Assembly (NCBI RefSeq): GCF_029227855.1
Contig: NZ_CP074356.1
DNA length: 64,000 nucleotides
Origin: Escherichia coli
GTDB taxonomy: Bacteria > Pseudomonadota > Gammaproteobacteria > Enterobacterales > Enterobacteriaceae
Reading direction: 5' to 3' (one strand)
Position 1 is the stretch's first letter. Every line of letters begins with the position of its first letter. The notes under the pieces were generated by a model. The model was not told the DNA's origin. It worked only from the letters and a program-made list of their open reading frames with translations, and ran no database searches. Position numbers and translations under genes: made by a program. This document shows positions 56,885 to 63,021 of the stretch, one piece after another.

Positions 56885-56997
56885 GACTCTTCTCCAGAGG
56901 GGCAGAATAACCACACCGGAGTGTGGTTATGGTAAATCCCTTCATACTTCAAGCCACAGATGCAATGACTCAAATTATTTTGGGGATACATACTTTA

Positions 56998-57240
56998 TTA
57001 CTGGGTACTGGTGGTCGTGGTTGTGGTGGTCCCGGTATTAGAACCATCACCGCCACCGGTTGCCGCGAGCGCGACACCCACCGCCGAGCTTACGGTGCTG
57101 ACGCTGGTCGCGGAGGAACTCCCCGCCGAAACCGACGTTGCTGCCGACCCTGCCGCTTCGCCCACCTGTACAGGTGCAGCCCACGCAGAAGTCGCCGCAA
57201 GCGCAGATATGGCAAAAATGCCATACAGAACTTTTTTCAT
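56998..57240 (-). CDS. yjbE: YjbE, small secreted Ser/Thr/Ala/Gly-rich protein
   Basis: 80 aa, signal peptide, then low-complexity [18 protein letters not shown] ... [10 protein letters not shown]. Confidence 0.88.
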
Positions 57241-57547
57241 AACAATTTCCCTTCATTGAATGAATGGAGATTTACCCAAAAACATTTCGGGCGGGATCGA
57301 GTATACACAACTAAAGCATGCGAATTACGGCGCGGGGAATTAGAGATGGGGTTTTAGGATAATTGGAATGAATATCAAATATAAGCTACAACTTATATAT
57401 AAATAACATTAAAAATCATAATGTTAAAATAAAAGTAAAAGTAATTAATCTGAGTATTTTCCGAAATCAATCACGATTAAAAATCTATTTTAGGATTAAC
57501 CTCACGGTATGATTTCCGTTAAATCACAGACAAGGGGATTTATCTGA

Positions 57548-57579
57548 TAAAACAATGCCGACATAACGTCGGCATTGTT
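57548..57579 (-). terminator. Rho-independent terminator after pgi
   Basis: AACAATGCCGAC-loop-GTCGGCATTGTT hairpin with a T-run on the minus strand. Confidence 0.8.
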
Positions 57580-57594
57580 ATTAAGGTTTTTAAA

Positions 57595-59244
57595 TTAACC
57601 GCGCCACGCTTTATAGCGGTTAATCAGACCATTGGTCGAGCTATCGTGGCTGCTGATTTCTTTATCATCTTTCAGCTCTGGCAGAATACGGTTTGCCAGT
57701 TGTTTACCCAGCTCCACGCCCCACTGGTCGAAGGTGAAGATGTTCAGGATCACGCCCTGAGTAAAGATTTTGTGCTCATACAGCGCAATCAACGCCCCCA
57801 GGCTGAACGGAGTGATTTCGCGCAGCAGGATGGAGTTGGTCGGGCGGTTACCTTCGAACACTTTGAACGGCACCACGTAGTCAAGCGTTGCCGGATCTTT
57901 ACCCTGATCGCGATATTCCTGCTCAACCACTTCGCGGGATTTACCAAACGCCAGCGCTTCGGTCTGGGCGAAGAAGTTAGACAGCAGTTTCTGGTGGTGA
58001 TCAGAGAGCGGGTTATGGGTGATAGCCGGGGCGATGAAATCGCACGGTACCATTTTGGTTCCCTGGTGGATCAGCTGGTAGAACGCGTGCTGACCGTTAG
58101 TGCCTGGTTCACCCCAGATAATCGGGCCAGTCTGGTAATCCACAACGTTACCGTTACGGTCAACATACTTACCGTTGGACTCCATATTGCCCTGCTGGAA
58201 GTACGCCGCGAAACGGTGCATATACTGGTCATACGGCAGAATCGCTTCAGTTTCCGCACCAAAGAAATTGTTGTACCAGATGCCAATCAGCGCCAGCAGG
58301 ACAGGCAGGTTTTTCTCGGCAGGCGTGGTGGAGAAATGCTTGTCCATTGCGTGTGCGCCAGAAAGCAGTTCAACGAAGTTATCAAAGCCGATGGAGAGAA
58401 CAATCGACAGGCCAATCGCTGACCACAAAGAGTAACGGCCGCCGACCCAGTCCCAGAACTCGAACATGTTGGCAGTATCAATACCAAACTCGCCAACGGC
58501 TTTGGCATTGGTGGAAAGCGCCGCAAAGTGTTTTGCAACGTGTTTTTCATCACCTGCCGCTTTCAGGAACCAGTCACGCGCGCTATGGGCGTTGGTCATA
58601 GTTTCCTGAGTGGTGAAGGTTTTAGATGCTACCAGGAACAGCGTGGTTTCCGGGTTTACTTTTTTCAGCACTTCAGCGATGTGAGTCCCATCGACGTTAG
58701 AAACAAAGTGCATGTTCAGGTGATTTTTGTACGGACGCAGTGCTTCGGTCACCATGTACGGGCCGAGGTCAGAACCACCGATCCCGATGTTCACTACGTC
58801 AGTGATTGCTTTGCCGGTATAACCCTTCCACTCACCGGAGATAATCGCTTCCGAGAAGGTTTTCATCTTCTCCAGCACCGCGTTGACTTCCGGCATTACG
58901 TCTTTGCCATCAACCAGAATCGGGGTATTGCTACGGTTACGCAGCGCTACGTGCAGCACGGCGCGGTTTTCAGTGCGGTTGATCTTCTCGCCAGAGAACA
59001 TCGACTTAATCGCGCCCGCCAGATCGCACTCTTTCGCCAGATCCTGTAATTTCGCCAGCGTCTCTTCAGTGATGCGGTTTTTGGAGTAATCCACCAGCAT
59101 CTGATCGTCGAAGGTTGCGGAGAACTTAGAAAAACGATCGCCGTCTTTAGCAAAAAGATCGGCGATCGTAACGTCTTTCATTTCATCGAAGTGTTTCTGT
59201 AGTGCCTGCCAGGCAGCGGTCTGCGTTGGATTGATGTTTTTCAT
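57595..59244 (-). CDS. pgi: Glucose-6-phosphate isomerase
   Basis: 549 aa from ATG 59244 ([19 protein letters not shown] ...). Confidence 0.97.
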
Positions 59245-61118: not shown

Positions 61119-61262
61119 TATTTCCCTACTGGCGTATAACGCTCACCGATTGTTATACGCCATCCTCACTGAAAACATAGATTAAATAATATCTGAAAAG
61201 CAAAATCACTCCTGTAGAACAGTATTATAATCACCGAAAAATATCATTTAACAGGAGTGTTA

Positions 61263-62189
61263 ATGGCTACTTTAATGGAAAAAGATGCACTTTTAAACGG
61301 AGCCAGTCAGTGCATCGCGTTTTTATCAAATATCATTGATAATTGCTCAGTTTCGTCGCATCAGGATTCAGGCGATGCTCTCAAGCGATTAGTCAGCTAT
61401 CGCGATTATCTTTATTCTACCCCCGCTGAACTTGTTGATTTTACACAAGGTAAGATTCTCCTTCAGCAGGTAAGAACTCAATATCAGCATGAATTCAACA
61501 ATACTACGCATTCAGAAAATAAAGCATCTTTTGATTCTATTTGGCAGCGTCTGACAAATCATGAAGTCACACCGCAACAGCATCCCATTGGTTTTGTTTT
61601 AGGTGGGCAACCCGGAGCAGGTAAATCATCTCTGATTGAATTAGCCAAAAGAGAGACAAAAGATAATATAATGATTATTAACGGTGATGATTTTCGATTT
61701 CTACACCCTGATTTTAATTATATCTACCAAAATTATGGGGATGATTTTGTTACCCATACAGCGAAATTTTCCGGCGAAACGGTCGAACGTGCAATTGAGA
61801 GAGCGATAGTCAGTAAACTCAACATTGTTGTCGAAGGAACATTTCGTAATGCCGCGACGCCGTTACAAACATTAAAAAAACTCAAAGATGCAGGCTACCA
61901 AACAGAAGTCATGATAAAAACAACCTCAGCGGCATTAAGCTGGGAAAGCACCAATGAACGGTATAGTAAGGACAAAGAGGCGGGAAATATTGCCCGAAAA
62001 GTGGATAAAAACCACCATGATATCGTCACCGGTTTGCTGGCAGAAAATGCCCGCAAGGTGTTTGCTTCGAACCTGTCAGATAAGTTTGCGGTGTATTCGC
62101 GTGAGAAGATGATATTTAGTTCACAAGCGGCAACGAATGACGATATTGCAACACTTATACAGAATGAAATCAGCGGGAATACACAATAA
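61263..62189 (+). CDS. Zeta-toxin-family P-loop kinase with N-terminal extension (EzeT-like single-chain toxin-antitoxin candidate)
   Basis: 308 aa from ATG 61263 (SD AGGAG 61253-61257; ORF track starts at GTG 61257). Walker A GGQPGAGKSS around residue 115 and colinear blocks matching zeta/PezT (IMIINGDDFRFLHPDF, NIVVEGTFRN, ... HDIV ... YSRE); AT-rich. Confidence 0.75.
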   Translation: MATLMEKDALLNGASQCIAFLSNIIDNCSVSSHQDSGDALKRLVSYRDYLYSTPAELVDFTQGKILLQQVRTQYQHEFNNTTHSENKASFDSIWQRLTNHEVTPQQHPIGFVLGGQPGAGKSSLIELAKRETKDNIMIINGDDFRFLHPDFNYIYQNYGDDFVTHTAKFSGETVERAIERAIVSKLNIVVEGTFRNAATPLQTLKKLKDAGYQTEVMIKTTSAALSWESTNERYSKDKEAGNIARKVDKNHHDIVTGLLAENARKVFASNLSDKFAVYSREKMIFSSQAATNDDIATLIQNEISGNTQ

Positions 62190-62224
62190 TAATAAGAGCT
62201 GATGGCGTGAAATAACGCCGGGCT

Positions 62225-63016
62225 TTATGCCCGGCGCATTACCGTCTGGTACATTAAGCTATCCAGTTCCTTAACGTCCCCTTCTCTGCTATCCGGTAAC
62301 AGCGGTGGAATTTCCCCACGCGCCTGTTCCGCACGAATAAACGCATGTAACAATGGACGGCGCGGACCATATTCCGCTTCTCCTGCGCGCTGTTTACGTT
62401 CCAGTAATTCGTCTATTTCTGCACGTAACGGCGCATCAAGTTCGCTTCCCGCCAGTAACTCAGCAAAGCGCATTGGCGGCACGCCTTTTCCCGCTTCGAC
62501 CCAGCGCACGGCCAGCAGCGGACGCAGCACGTAAAAGTATTTTTTCAGTCGAACTTCATCGCCCTGCAAATATCCGCGGAAGTTTTTCTGCGCCATCGAA
62601 TAGTAATGCCAGCGCGCACGCAGCGGAGAAAACCACATTGGGACCATTGCCTTAAGCGCCGTTATCGTTTCTTCATCTTGTTGATAGACCACCGGAGAAT
62701 CCAGCCATTCTATCAGCGTCGGGTTCGCGCCTTTCAATAATCCCAGCGCCTTACGCCACTCCCAACCGGAAACATCTAACTCGTCGTCGATGGGCAGCTC
62801 GATAACATCGCGCGGCGGCTCCACCCGCAGATACCATTCCAGCGGGTGAACATACAAAAACCGTACATCGTAGTCGCTGTCGGGCGAGGCAAACCCCCAG
62901 CCGCGGCTCCCGGATTCACAGGCATACAGCACTTTCACGCCGTAGCGCCGTTCTATTTCTTTTAACTGCTGCGATACCCGTTCGCGCATCGCAGCACTGA
63001 CTCCATTTAATGGCAT
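62225..63016 (-). CDS. Polymerase-beta-superfamily nucleotidyltransferase, family not assigned
   Basis: 263 aa from ATG 63016 (ORF track starts at GTG 63025); motif ESGSRGWGFASPDSDYDVRF (GS-x9-SD-x-D); SD AAAGGGTGAG contains the stop of the upstream SPFH gene. Confidence 0.7.
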   Translation of the reverse strand: MPLNGVSAAMRERVSQQLKEIERRYGVKVLYACESGSRGWGFASPDSDYDVRFLYVHPLEWYLRVEPPRDVIELPIDDELDVSGWEWRKALGLLKGANPTLIEWLDSPVVYQQDEETITALKAMVPMWFSPLRARWHYYSMAQKNFRGYLQGDEVRLKKYFYVLRPLLAVRWVEAGKGVPPMRFAELLAGSELDAPLRAEIDELLERKQRAGEAEYGPRRPLLHAFIRAEQARGEIPPLLPDSREGDVKELDSLMYQTVMRRA

Positions 63017-63021
63017 GTTAC

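Follow-up and report, generated by a model that had tools for sequence, protein, structure and literature searches.

What does the AT-rich DNA between pgi and yjbE do, and how does it relate to the small, low-complexity protein whose gene it precedes? Both flanking genes lie on the minus strand. The stop codon of pgi (TAA, 57597–57595) and the ATG of yjbE (57240–57238) set the limits of the intergenic region at 57241–57594, an interval of 354 bp. pgi itself (glucose-6-phosphate isomerase, 57595–59244) is an open reading frame that is also annotated in the RefSeq records of identical E. coli sequences, and it lies upstream of yjbE in the same orientation. The intergenic region is 68.4% AT, compared to 49.5% for the window (the whole 64,000-nucleotide stretch of DNA analysed here), and 3.0% of all 354-bp segments of the window are equally AT-rich. 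A/T tracts of at least four bases occur at 3.1 per 100 bp in the region against 1.06 per 100 bp window-wide, so that the description of the upstream DNA as rich in such tracts in an earlier note on this sequence holds. That note also spoke of about 350 bp of very AT-rich DNA. The length is right for the region as a whole, but the very AT-rich part covers only ~195 bp: AT content is 75% in 57351–57545 and 80% in 57350–57500, and falls to 56% in the 110 bp proximal to yjbE (57241–57350). The core of the region contains the most AT-rich 150-bp stretch of the entire window, with a GC fraction of 0.20 at 57350/57353.

Aligning 66 enterobacterial species resolved this interval into its parts. Toward yjbE, they follow one another as the pgi terminator, two boxes (A and B), an AT-rich spacer, a third box (C), the hexamer TATACT and a leader containing two hairpins. 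The AT-rich DNA corresponds to a regulatory region that is already known, that of the yjbEFGH exopolysaccharide operon, which is under envelope-stress control. We read the interval as a composite in which the end of pgi is joined to the yjbE(FGH) control region, and give this explanation as a whole, including the mechanism set out below, a probability of roughly 60%. The locus belongs to the E. coli core (5425 of 5426 genomes) and is syntenic across the Enterobacteriaceae. Together with the synteny, the conserved length and composition of the AT-rich core in 52 species indicate that this DNA is not foreign; it appears to be ancestral rather than horizontally acquired or strain-specific.

The first ~50 bp of the interval are taken up by the intrinsic terminator of pgi (57547–57579, minus strand). 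Its arms, AACAAUGCCGAC and GUCGGCAUUGUU (57579–57551), enclose a GUUAU loop and are followed by UUAU. The hairpin folds with −21.4 kcal/mol (z = −5.65), and none of 200 shuffled sequences was equally stable. Its stem changes in a compensatory manner between genera (GCCGAC/GUCGGC, GCCGGC/GCCGGC, GCCGAU/AUCGGC, GCCAGC/GCUGGC and ACCGGC/GCCGGU). The hairpin thus has the features of a Rho-independent terminator, being stable and G+C-rich, with a U-run and compensatory changes; a simple terminator scanner overlooked it owing to the interruption in the U-run. A- and T-runs flank the hairpin in most genera, and its A-rich 5′ flank makes it potentially bidirectional. A perfect, conserved palindrome, TTTATCAGATAAA, can be read from the sequence at 57539–57551, where it overlaps the U-tract of the terminator. 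Its per-base identity is roughly 50–90% among the 66 species, and the conserved block runs on as ...ATCC to 57535.

Three elements resembling binding sites of the Rcs regulators lie beyond the terminator. The consensus of the RcsAB box is reportedly TaAGaatatTCctA. Box A (TGAGGTTAATCCTA plus AAAT; 57487–57504, minus strand) is an RcsAB-box-like 14-mer that stands out as an island of ~90% conservation (66 species) and whose distance from the pgi stop codon is constant. It agrees with the RcsAB box at each of its six core positions (T1, A3, G4, T10, C11 and A14), and within it falls the only exact copy in the 64-kb window of TCCTAAAAT, the RcsB half-site as quoted in a Reg-Seq preprint (10.1101/2025.05.13.653802). 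Box B (TGAGTATTTTCCGA plus AAT; 57451–57467, plus strand) is a second RcsAB-box-like 14-mer, inverted with respect to box A. Measured centre to centre, the two lie 40 bp apart in Escherichia and 51 bp apart in the other genera, and the 11-bp difference amounts to about one helical turn. Boxes A and B each match 6/6 core positions and 10 of the 14 consensus positions, with RcsAB-like left halves (TGAG). Box C (TTCCAATTATCCTA plus AAAC; 57351–57368, minus strand) starts at a fixed 62 bp upstream of GTATACT. Its right half is an RcsB-type half-site, and its left half ((A/T)TCCA) is conserved and off the RcsB consensus. All three boxes are conserved at fixed positions while their flanks diverge (52–66 species). 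The six-position core pattern by itself is not rare (28 matches in the window against 22 expected). Measured against the strict RcsB homodimer consensus TN(G/A)GAN4TC(T/C)NA, box A has one mismatch, and no zero-mismatch match occurs in the region.

Between boxes B and C, the AT-rich spacer (57369–57450) keeps its composition and length, and not its sequence. Its mean AT content is 80.9% against 45.6% for the surrounding loci, and the span from box A to box C is 158 ± 7 bp (both in 52 species); per-base conservation is low except for a TTAAC..TGATTT motif at about 57427–57412. Such retention of composition and length while the sequence drifts fits a structural role for the AT-rich core, as for an element that is read by its shape or bends readily. 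One may therefore ask whether the core acts mainly as a platform for nucleoid proteins, with H-NS (or StpA, Fis or IHF) coating or bending 57350–57545 and so silencing yjbE, and with Rcs activating chiefly by relieving this silencing. This alternative is compatible with the main explanation, and we hold it as a tentative possibility. The 80% AT content of the core and an A/T-tract density three times the background speak for it, and a conserved block, CAGATAAATCC, resembles the core of a high-affinity H-NS motif that is said to read tCGATAAATT. However, the best-conserved bases of the region are specific boxes rather than a composition, AA/TT dinucleotides show no clear phasing at 10–11 bp in the intergenic region, and the DNA was inherited in synteny from an ancestor rather than gained by horizontal transfer. 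A literature search for yjbE together with H-NS or ChIP found nothing on binding or expression.

On the composite reading, the part of the interval nearest to yjbE holds its promoter and leader. An invariant element in the alignment, TTGTGTATACTCGA (57297–57310, minus strand; 90–100% identity in 66 species), contains the putative −10 hexamer TATACT (57305–57300). The −35 element is weak (GTAATT type) and variable among species. From this arrangement, we infer that yjbE transcription starts at about 57293; as the start is an estimate, so are all box positions given relative to it, and boxes A and B would lie unusually far upstream. The yjbE start site is not listed in the Kim 2012 TSS supplements, and the literature search returned no mention by name of a yjbE promoter or reporter. 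The leader, about 53 nt from the putative start, is near-invariant and structured. Leader hairpin 1 (GCCCGAAA...UUUUGGGU; 57274–57292, minus strand), at the putative 5′ end of the mRNA, appears both in the consensus fold of 47 species and in the single-sequence fold. Among these species, its columns 6/19 are U-G in 22, U-A in 14 and C-G in 9, and its columns 7/18 are G-U in 23 and G-C in 23. Leader hairpin 2 (UCCAUUCAU / AUGAAGGGA; 57248–57268, minus strand), likewise present in both folds, pairs with the Shine-Dalgarno sequence AAGGGA (57253–57248), 7 nt ahead of the AUG. The stem of hairpin 2 never varies in the 47 species and is therefore uninformative for covariation, with substitutions and a 4-nt insertion confined to the loop; the invariant stem could equally well be a DNA operator. 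As a single sequence, the leader does not fold with unusual stability (z = −1.43).

Downstream, yjbE is the first gene of a cassette with yjbF (lipoprotein, Pfam PF11102; 56884–56246), yjbG (GfcC-like, PF20616 and PF06251; 56249–55512) and yjbH (outer-membrane protein, PF06082; 55512–53416), all on the minus strand, and this gfcB/C/D-type arrangement is found here and in the 66 enterobacterial loci. The gene identities proposed in the earlier note agree with Pfam matches to PF11106, PF11102, GfcC and YjbH and with the RefSeq annotation. Its link of the operon to exopolysaccharide is in line with the literature, as is its remark that the role of YjbE is unclear, the role of YjbE/GfcA still being termed unknown in papers of 2021–2024. 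The relevance it gave to RcsB is likewise borne out, by the conserved RcsAB-box-like sites inside the AT-rich DNA and by published expression data: yjbEFGH expression was reported to be RcsA-RcsB-dependent independently in E. coli and Salmonella, and the operon is turned on by the Rcs envelope-stress phosphorelay and responds to osmotic stress (PMC5461412, PMC5651002). Binding of RcsA or RcsB at boxes A, B or C is not documented in the literature surveyed.

The same boxes could in principle answer to a different protein. TCCTAAAA-type boxes might serve, rather than RcsA-RcsB, an activator that has been proposed to act on yjbJ and ybaY under osmotic shock and that may be RcsB with another partner; we consider this unlikely. 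The preprint quoted above (10.1101/2025.05.13.653802) holds that, at salt-induced promoters, sites of the TCCTAAAAT type are used by an activator yet to be identified and not by RcsAB. It describes a non-palindromic activator site with TCCTAAAAT as its right half and a left half unlike those of known RcsB partners, and adds yjbE, as a salt-induced gene carrying a TCCTAAAAT-type motif, to the candidates. The exact 9-mer is present in box A, and the conserved left half of box C is not RcsB-like. However, the preprint assigned yjbE by motif scan only, the TGAG left halves of boxes A and B are of the RcsAB kind, and RcsA-dependent control was reported separately in the two organisms. When the yjbJ promoter was sought in the window for comparison with box A, the candidate position fell inside an unrelated AT-rich ORF.

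The opposite strand raises the question of an antisense RNA. A full-length match to the Rfam family RF02053 (STnc430) lies at 57437–57586 on the plus strand, spanning boxes B and A up to the pgi terminator hairpin, with 69.1 bits against a gathering score of 47 (E = 2.8e-10). As in Salmonella LT2, it is antisense in the syntenic pgi/yjbE spacer, and matches occur at the same position in Salmonella (158 bits), Huaxiibacter (107 bits) and Cedecea (84 bits), making four genera in all. A genuine sRNA would run from a promoter at 57403–57430 to the bidirectional pgi terminator, and either the RNA or its transcription across boxes B and A would modulate yjbE. The promoter scan found a sigma-70-like site on the plus strand at these coordinates (ATAACA-16-TAAAAT, with an upstream TG) that predicts a start at about 57437, exactly where the STnc430 match begins. 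In 29 of 52 species, a promoter-like site places its −10 at this relative position, and the terminator, with its A-/T-run flanks in most genera, could serve both strands. We nevertheless find such an sRNA rather doubtful. AT-rich DNA readily yields promoter-like hexamers, and one was found in the region where 2.0 were expected. The family stems from a purely computational candidate for which neither of the two Sittka 2008 libraries yielded a cDNA read and the Northern column reads 'np', and it is missing from the part of the Colgan 2016 sRNA lists that was examined. The family's main helix forms between box B and the complement of box A. In 37 species, 64.0% of the cells of this helix are paired compared to a mean of 68.8% in shuffles, 500/500 of which reached at least as high a value, and its covariation score, 0.058, falls below the 0.099 of the shuffles. 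Its two variable positions are unpaired in 21/37 and 31/37 species, and the putative RNA lacks conservation in its 5′ third. Covariation is found here only in the terminator hairpin that is shared with pgi. The RF02053 'structure' is probably made up of two protein-binding sites and the terminator of a neighbouring gene.

The product of yjbE (56998–57240, minus strand) is, as the earlier note had it, an 80-residue protein dominated by Ser, Thr, Ala and Gly. It matches Pfam PF11106 over residues 1–79 of 80 (113.6 bits, cut-off 27.9, E = 5e-33), and the gene is present at constant length in 5420 of 5426 complete E. coli genomes; no NCBIfam model matches YjbE, and no relatives were found among solved structures. 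Residues 1–21 (57240–57178) have the form of a Sec-type signal peptide, with MKK, a hydrophobic core and AWA|AP, and YjbE is predicted to be secreted. The mature part of 59 residues consists to 88% of S, T, A, G and V (T13 S12 A11 G9 V7), and carries no charged residues other than one E and one D. The traits of PF11106 are all there, namely the signal peptide, GEAAG, an S/T/A/G-rich middle, GGGDGS-NTG and a poly-Thr tail, and like the distant members of the family YjbE has a short hydrophobic G/A/V/L segment. AF2 modelling of YjbE alone gave no confident fold (mean pLDDT 48.9). YjbE resembles simple-sequence filler, yet it is among the best-conserved proteins of the locus. Mean identity in the orthologue comparison is 87.6% against 79.8% for YjbF, and yjbE is under strong purifying selection (pN 0.058 and pS 0.50 in 66 orthologues, pN/pS about 0.1) with synonymous change nearly saturated. 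A 9-bp insertion in yjbE has been associated with mucoidy (PMC8540638). As to RyhB, yjbE appears once in a ribosome-profiling table, as an unverified change.

Between yjbE and yjbF lies another hairpin, AUAACCACAC-UCCG-GUGUGGUUAU (56907–56930, minus strand), recognised by its conservation and fold. Its stem is identical in 60 species, its loop is usually UUCG, and it is followed by UUCUG here and by UUUUG in most genera. It may act as a leaky terminator or as a 3′ stabiliser of a short yjbE mRNA. A passage of PMC8208086 that cites Ferrieres 2007 gives yjbE mRNA as more abundant than yjbFGH mRNA. A weak isrH match beside the hairpin (16 bits against 45) was rejected as noise.

Taken together, these elements suggest how the composite control region might work. 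RcsA-RcsB, or RcsB with another partner, would bind boxes A and B, ~165–205 bp upstream, and box C at about −68, and the flexible AT-rich spacer would allow the distal sites to cooperate with the proximal one. While Rcs is off, the spacer would also be a natural target for H-NS-type silencing. The leader hairpin would dampen translation of yjbE, whose product would be a Sec-exported, probably unstructured peptide of 59 residues with a near-invariant Thr7 tail. The hairpin after yjbE would give rise to a short, abundant yjbE mRNA with less read-through into yjbFGH, and we propose that YjbE would thereby be made in excess over its presumed lipoprotein, periplasmic and outer-membrane partners. 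YjbE presumably works with YjbF, YjbG and YjbH, perhaps as cargo, as a glycan acceptor or as a membrane-associated accessory.

Distant relatives bear on the pairing of YjbE with YjbFGH. A word-indexed protein search for YjbE relatives returned mainly frame-shifted or truncated variants; distant PF11106 members came from an exhaustive HMM search of 1.84 billion representatives. In 6/7 distant YjbE-family genes examined, yjbFGH are not adjacent, and such stand-alone genes weaken the case for YjbE as a dedicated partner of YjbFGH. RcsAB-like 14-mers are enriched upstream of the seven distant genes, with 14 observed against 4.1 expected. The half-site TC[CT][TG]AAA is also enriched ahead of the stand-alone members, but weakly when each locus is taken singly, and this is suggestive only. 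YjbE-family peptides might be envelope products in their own right, linked to Rcs boxes, and not just accessories to an exopolysaccharide exporter, with the peptide itself displayed or exported and with YjbF, YjbG and YjbH as one optional export route. In one possible version, YjbE would be a mucin-like, possibly O-glycosylated carrier or primer for the 'Yjb polysaccharide'. Such autonomy would explain why the operon has no glycosyltransferase gene, why a low-complexity protein is conserved better than its folded neighbour, and why solitary relatives with AT-rich, box-bearing upstream DNA occur in other Enterobacterales-like genomes. Even so, we regard it as quite improbable.

Intergenic DNA in E. 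coli is generally AT-rich, and with 3% of 354-bp segments as AT-rich as this one the region could be put down to ordinary bias and YjbE to a chance low-complexity ORF, but this is barely credible given boxes, spacing and composition that are conserved over 52–66 species, a pN/pS of about 0.1 and a Pfam cut-off exceeded fourfold.

Our reading re-describes a known operon with known stress control, and in that respect changes little. The base-level map of the boxes, the −10 hexamer, the leader hairpins and the inter-cistronic hairpin makes the regulation of yjbE directly testable, and the excess of yjbE over yjbFGH mRNA could likewise be tested with a handful of point mutations. The strong constraint on YjbE, in a family that is not tied to yjbFGH, narrows the hypotheses on the role of YjbE/GfcA in capsule or exopolysaccharide export.

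The closest known system is yjbEFGH of E. coli K-12 (b4026–b4029; Ferrieres et al. 2007), in which the genes, their order and the adjacent pgi are the same as here. K-12 YjbE is identical to the protein here in annotation and length, and downstream of the point of REP insertion the two control regions agree at almost every base. The difference lies right after the pgi stop codon, where K-12, B and O157 carry a 144-bp REP/BIME block that this strain is without; the intergenic region is 354 bp long here and 498 bp in K-12, and at least five length alleles of this insertion site exist among E. coli. The gfc cassette follows the same four-gene plan of a small Thr-rich protein, a LolA-like lipoprotein, a GfcC-type protein and a YjbH/GfcD outer-membrane protein. 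Inspection of the K-12 gfc locus showed that GfcA shares the architecture of YjbE and its position in this paralogous cassette: an AXA|AP signal peptide, a G/A/T/S-rich stretch, a hydrophobic G/A/V segment and an ...GDGGSHNTSTTTSTTR C-terminal tail. The hydrophobic segment of GfcA is much longer than that of YjbE, sequence homology between the two was not detected (BLASTP E = 65), and GfcA has no PF11106 match. Homologues of wza, wzb and wzc follow the gfc genes and not the yjb genes.

Promoters with RcsAB boxes (cps/wza, rcsA and amsG; Wehland & Bernhard 2000) or RcsB boxes (Huesa et al. 2021, PMC7913699) share with the sites described here the 14-bp pseudo-palindrome T..G.....TC..A and its TCCTA right half. 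In contrast to these promoters, the yjbE region has three boxes and not one, two of them inverted and 40 or 51 bp apart; none of them fits the strict RcsB consensus perfectly, and the left half of box C is not RcsB-like. In both cases, the boxes lie upstream of a promoter that depends on an activator and has a weak −35 element, and RcsB sites have been published at distances of up to −161 and −215 from the transcription start.

The pgi-yjbE intergenic region (57594-57241, minus strand, 354 bp) separates pgi (59244-57595) from yjbE (57240-56998; Pfam PF11106, YjbE), followed on the same strand by yjbF (56884-56246; PF11102, YjbF), yjbG (56249-55512; two GfcC domains) and yjbH (55512-53416; PF06082, YjbH). 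Pfam matches of all four Yjb products were far over the cut-offs. Of 5426 complete E. coli genomes, 5425 share an 801-bp pgi-yjbE segment, and their annotation names pgi and an 'exopolysaccharide production protein YjbE'. The locus is K-12 yjbEFGH, here in reverse orientation, and the limits in the earlier note, 57241-57594, are exact. The finding is correct, and the operon and its mode of control were already known. yjbEFGH has been linked to osmotic-stress resistance and to an exopolysaccharide other than colanic acid.

The earlier note had described about 350 bp of very AT-rich, A/T-tract-rich DNA before yjbE. The AT-richness held: the intergenic region is 68.4% AT and the window 49.5%, only 3.0% of 354-bp windows across the whole stretch are equally AT-rich, and 57350-57500, at 80% AT, is the most AT-rich 150 bp of the 64 kb. 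A/T tracts of at least 4 bases are indeed three times denser than average. The extent was overstated, since the yjbE-proximal 110 bp are 56% AT, making the AT-richness uneven, and ~50 bp at the pgi-side end belong to the pgi terminator. Helical phasing of AA/TT dinucleotides was looked for in the interval and none was seen. Nucleoid-protein occupancy is plausible from the composition; a literature search for H-NS at the yjbE promoter turned up nothing.

YjbF served as the query to collect 80 loci from other Enterobacteriaceae; in 70 the pgi-yjbE-yjbF order was confirmed, and in an alignment of 66 spacers conservation was confined to discrete blocks. First comes the pgi terminator (57579-57551, minus strand; fold energy -21.4 kcal/mol, z = -5.65), whose stem shows compensatory changes from genus to genus. 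It is followed by a perfect palindrome of the T-N11-A type, TTTATCAGATAAA (57551-57539), conserved across genera, and by three candidate sites: the RcsAB-box-like box A, TGAGGTTAATCCTAAAAT (57504-57487, minus strand), and box B, TGAGTATTTTCCGAAAT (57451-57467, plus strand, opposite to box A), and then box C, TTCCAATTATCCTAAAAC (57368-57351, minus strand), whose start keeps a constant distance of 62 bp upstream from GTATACT. The remaining blocks are a TTAAC..TGATTT motif within the AT-rich spacer, the invariant TTGTGTATACTCGA (57310-57297, minus strand) and the nearly invariant leader down to the ATG. The palindrome overlaps the U-tract of the terminator, and its conserved block runs on as ATCC.

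The centre-to-centre distance of boxes A and B is 51 bp in most genera. In Escherichia it is 40 bp, through an 11-bp deletion in the A-B interval (57465-57490) relative to other genera (loci L008, L032 and others); this change leaves the two boxes roughly on the same helix face. The span from box A to box C was 158 ± 7 bp in 52 species. The B-C spacer averages 80.9% AT, compared to 45.6% in the surrounding loci, and is poorly conserved in sequence: what is kept is composition and geometry. Boxes A and B of one genome usually differ at two variable positions (TCCTAAAA vs TCTGAAAA), where box C tends to resemble box A.

Boxes A and B fit the RcsAB-box consensus attributed to Wehland & Bernhard 2000 at each of its six strongly conserved positions. 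Taken alone, this six-position pattern turns up in the window no less often than chance predicts, and each of the three boxes has at least one mismatch to the strict RcsB homodimer consensus, so the case for these putative Rcs boxes draws on their conservation and placement rather than on motif statistics. Exact TCCTAAAAT occurs once in the 64-kb window, inside box A, and a 2026 Reg-Seq preprint gives this 9-mer as the canonical right half-site of RcsB (10.1101/2025.05.13.653802). The RcsA-RcsB heterodimer has been described as an activator of yjbEFGH, osmotic stress is reported to induce the operon, several transcriptome studies found the operon induced upon envelope damage, and mutations in yjbEFGH themselves provoke mucoidy or colanic-acid anchoring. 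A live alternative is that the boxes, above all box C, are read by another, proposed salt-responsive activator. The left half of box C is not RcsB-like, and the same preprint places yjbE among the salt-induced candidates of this activator, whose site has the TCCTAAAAT half in common (10.1101/2025.05.13.653802). In our proposal, RcsA-RcsB, or RcsB with another partner, would read boxes A, B and C, and the AT-rich spacer would serve as a flexible or protein-coated connector, likely an H-NS target. The three-box architecture might repay a small experiment.

Since TATACT at 57305-57300 is invariant and accompanied by a weak -35, we infer a yjbE transcription start near 57293, which would place the centre of box C at about -68, box B at about -165 and box A at about -205. 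RcsB sites at -161 and -215 have been published, so the distal positions are not unprecedented. In one paper the yjbE locus is said, with no further detail, to have 'two promoters'. The predicted 53-nt leader forms two hairpins in a consensus fold of 47 species. Pairs of hairpin 1 (57292-57274, minus strand) are seen as C-G, U-A and U-G; in hairpin 2 (57268-57248, minus strand) UCCAUUCAU pairs with AUGAAGGGA, covering the Shine-Dalgarno. The single-sequence fold of the leader is not unusually stable (z = -1.43). The stem of hairpin 2 never varies, and its loop tolerates substitutions and a 4-nt insertion. This is suggestive, not proof, of damping of yjbE translation; conservation due to a DNA operator would look the same. 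Hairpin 2 may act as a brake on translation.

The region also matches Rfam RF02053 (STnc430) on the opposite strand, at 57437-57586 (plus strand; 69.1 bits, gathering score 47), and the syntenic region matches in Salmonella, Huaxiibacter and Cedecea as well. The transcription start predicted for a sigma-70-like site (57403-57430, plus strand) coincides exactly with the 5' end of this match, and 29 of 52 species carry a comparable plus-strand promoter-like site at the same relative position. However, Table S3 of Sittka 2008 gives STnc430 as an earlier predicted candidate in the pgi/yjbE spacer, with 0 reads in either cDNA library and 'np' in the Northern column, and it has no entry in later Salmonella sRNA lists, so far as these could be searched. 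Its main helix consists of box B and the complement of box A. Across 37 species only 64.0% of cells pair, a lower share than in any of 500 shuffles (mean 68.8%), the shuffles also exceed it in covariation score (0.099 compared to 0.058), and the two variable in-box positions are unpaired in 21/37 and 31/37 species. With zero reads, poor pairing and no covariation, a real antisense transcript is unlikely, and the conservation of RF02053 appears better explained by two inverted, putative protein-binding sites plus the pgi terminator. The doubtful status of this family might likewise repay a small experiment.

Between yjbE and yjbF lies a hairpin, UAACCACAC-UUCG-GUGUGGUUA, followed by a U-rich stretch (56930-56907, minus strand), which is identical in 60 species, the UUCG loop being usual. 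Given this invariance and the excess of yjbE over yjbFGH mRNA reported in a paper citing Ferrieres 2007 (PMC8208086), the hairpin probably uncouples yjbE from yjbFGH, as a leaky terminator or a 3' stabiliser. In our proposal it would act as a partial terminator. In Escherichia ~55 extra nt follow the yjbE stop, ahead of the hairpin (56940-56995, minus strand). Judged by the ERIC/IRU consensus, this insert looks like a short element of that type, of which a Citrobacter locus (L031:2320-2450) carries a full-size copy in the corresponding position. In several further genera a REP-like insertion lies 3' of the hairpin instead.

The window strain lacks a REP/BIME block of 144-158 bp that directly follows the pgi stop in K-12, a B strain and an O157-like strain. 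The pgi-yjbE spacer is 498 bp in K-12 (L003:409-906) compared to 354 bp here, and because it is 354-370 bp in most other enterobacterial genera, the REP-less junction looks ancestral. In complete E. coli genomes a 90-bp query over the 57594/57595 junction spans 90, 174, 203, 234 or 247 bp, so the junction exists as several alleles, in at least five length classes. Beyond pgi, the lysC leader holds a lysine riboswitch (RF00168, 59481-59677, plus strand, 99.5 bits), as expected at such a locus. Directly 3' of lysC are genes for a 310-aa Zeta_toxin-domain protein (61257-62189, plus strand) and a 266-aa RlaP-family nucleotidyltransferase-fold protein (62225-63025, minus strand). The GC content of 61257-63025 is 32-42%. 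K-12 is not known to have these genes beside lysC, so this segment is probably a strain-specific insertion. A search for the yjbJ promoter brought up a 338-aa ORF (31098-32114, minus strand; GC ~0.28) with KDKLDN-like repeats near its N-terminus.

YjbE has 80 aa, as the earlier note said, with a canonical predicted signal peptide (AWA|AP), and the Ser/Thr/Ala/Gly dominance noted there is borne out by a mature part of 59 residues that is 88% S/T/A/G/V. In comparison with 66 orthologues, pN is 0.058 and pS 0.50 for the mature part. YjbE averages 87.6% identity and the adjacent lipoprotein YjbF 79.8%, and the C-terminal 29 residues of YjbE are almost invariant. Despite its composition, yjbE is a real, tightly constrained gene. 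It was found in 5420 E. coli genomes, and because each match listed is 243 bp, the length of the Thr run does not seem to vary. From an alignment of 33 sequences, AlphaFold2 gave no confident fold (mean pLDDT 48.9, pTM 0.22), and no relative was found among solved structures. YjbE may be a Sec-exported disordered peptide that serves the YjbFGH machinery either as cargo or glycan acceptor, or as a membrane-associated accessory.

An exhaustive profile search of 1.84 billion representatives returned only 36 hits. A common design runs through the full-length ones: the signal peptide is followed by GEAAG, a middle part rich in G/S/A, a hydrophobic segment of G/A/V/L, GGGDGS-NTG and a poly-Thr tail with R, K or Q at its end. 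On seven contigs examined with distant members, the YjbF gene came next in one and the PF11106 gene stood alone in six, so the link between the family and yjbFGH is not obligatory. Stand-alone genes without yjbFGH occur at loci L085-L088 and L091-L094; the divergent neighbour at L087/L088 encodes a 188-aa protein of RcsA-type architecture, with GerE (LuxR-type DNA-binding) as its sole domain. Regions upstream of the distant genes are long and AT-rich, with 14 RcsAB-like 14-mers at seven loci against 4.1 expected, the evidence per locus being weak. Strong constraint on YjbE-type peptides was unexpected and, with their partial independence from yjbFGH, might also repay a small experiment. E. coli GfcA has no measurable similarity to YjbE (BLASTP E = 65) and no PF11106 match, yet it has the same design and occupies the same place in the paralogous gfc cassette.
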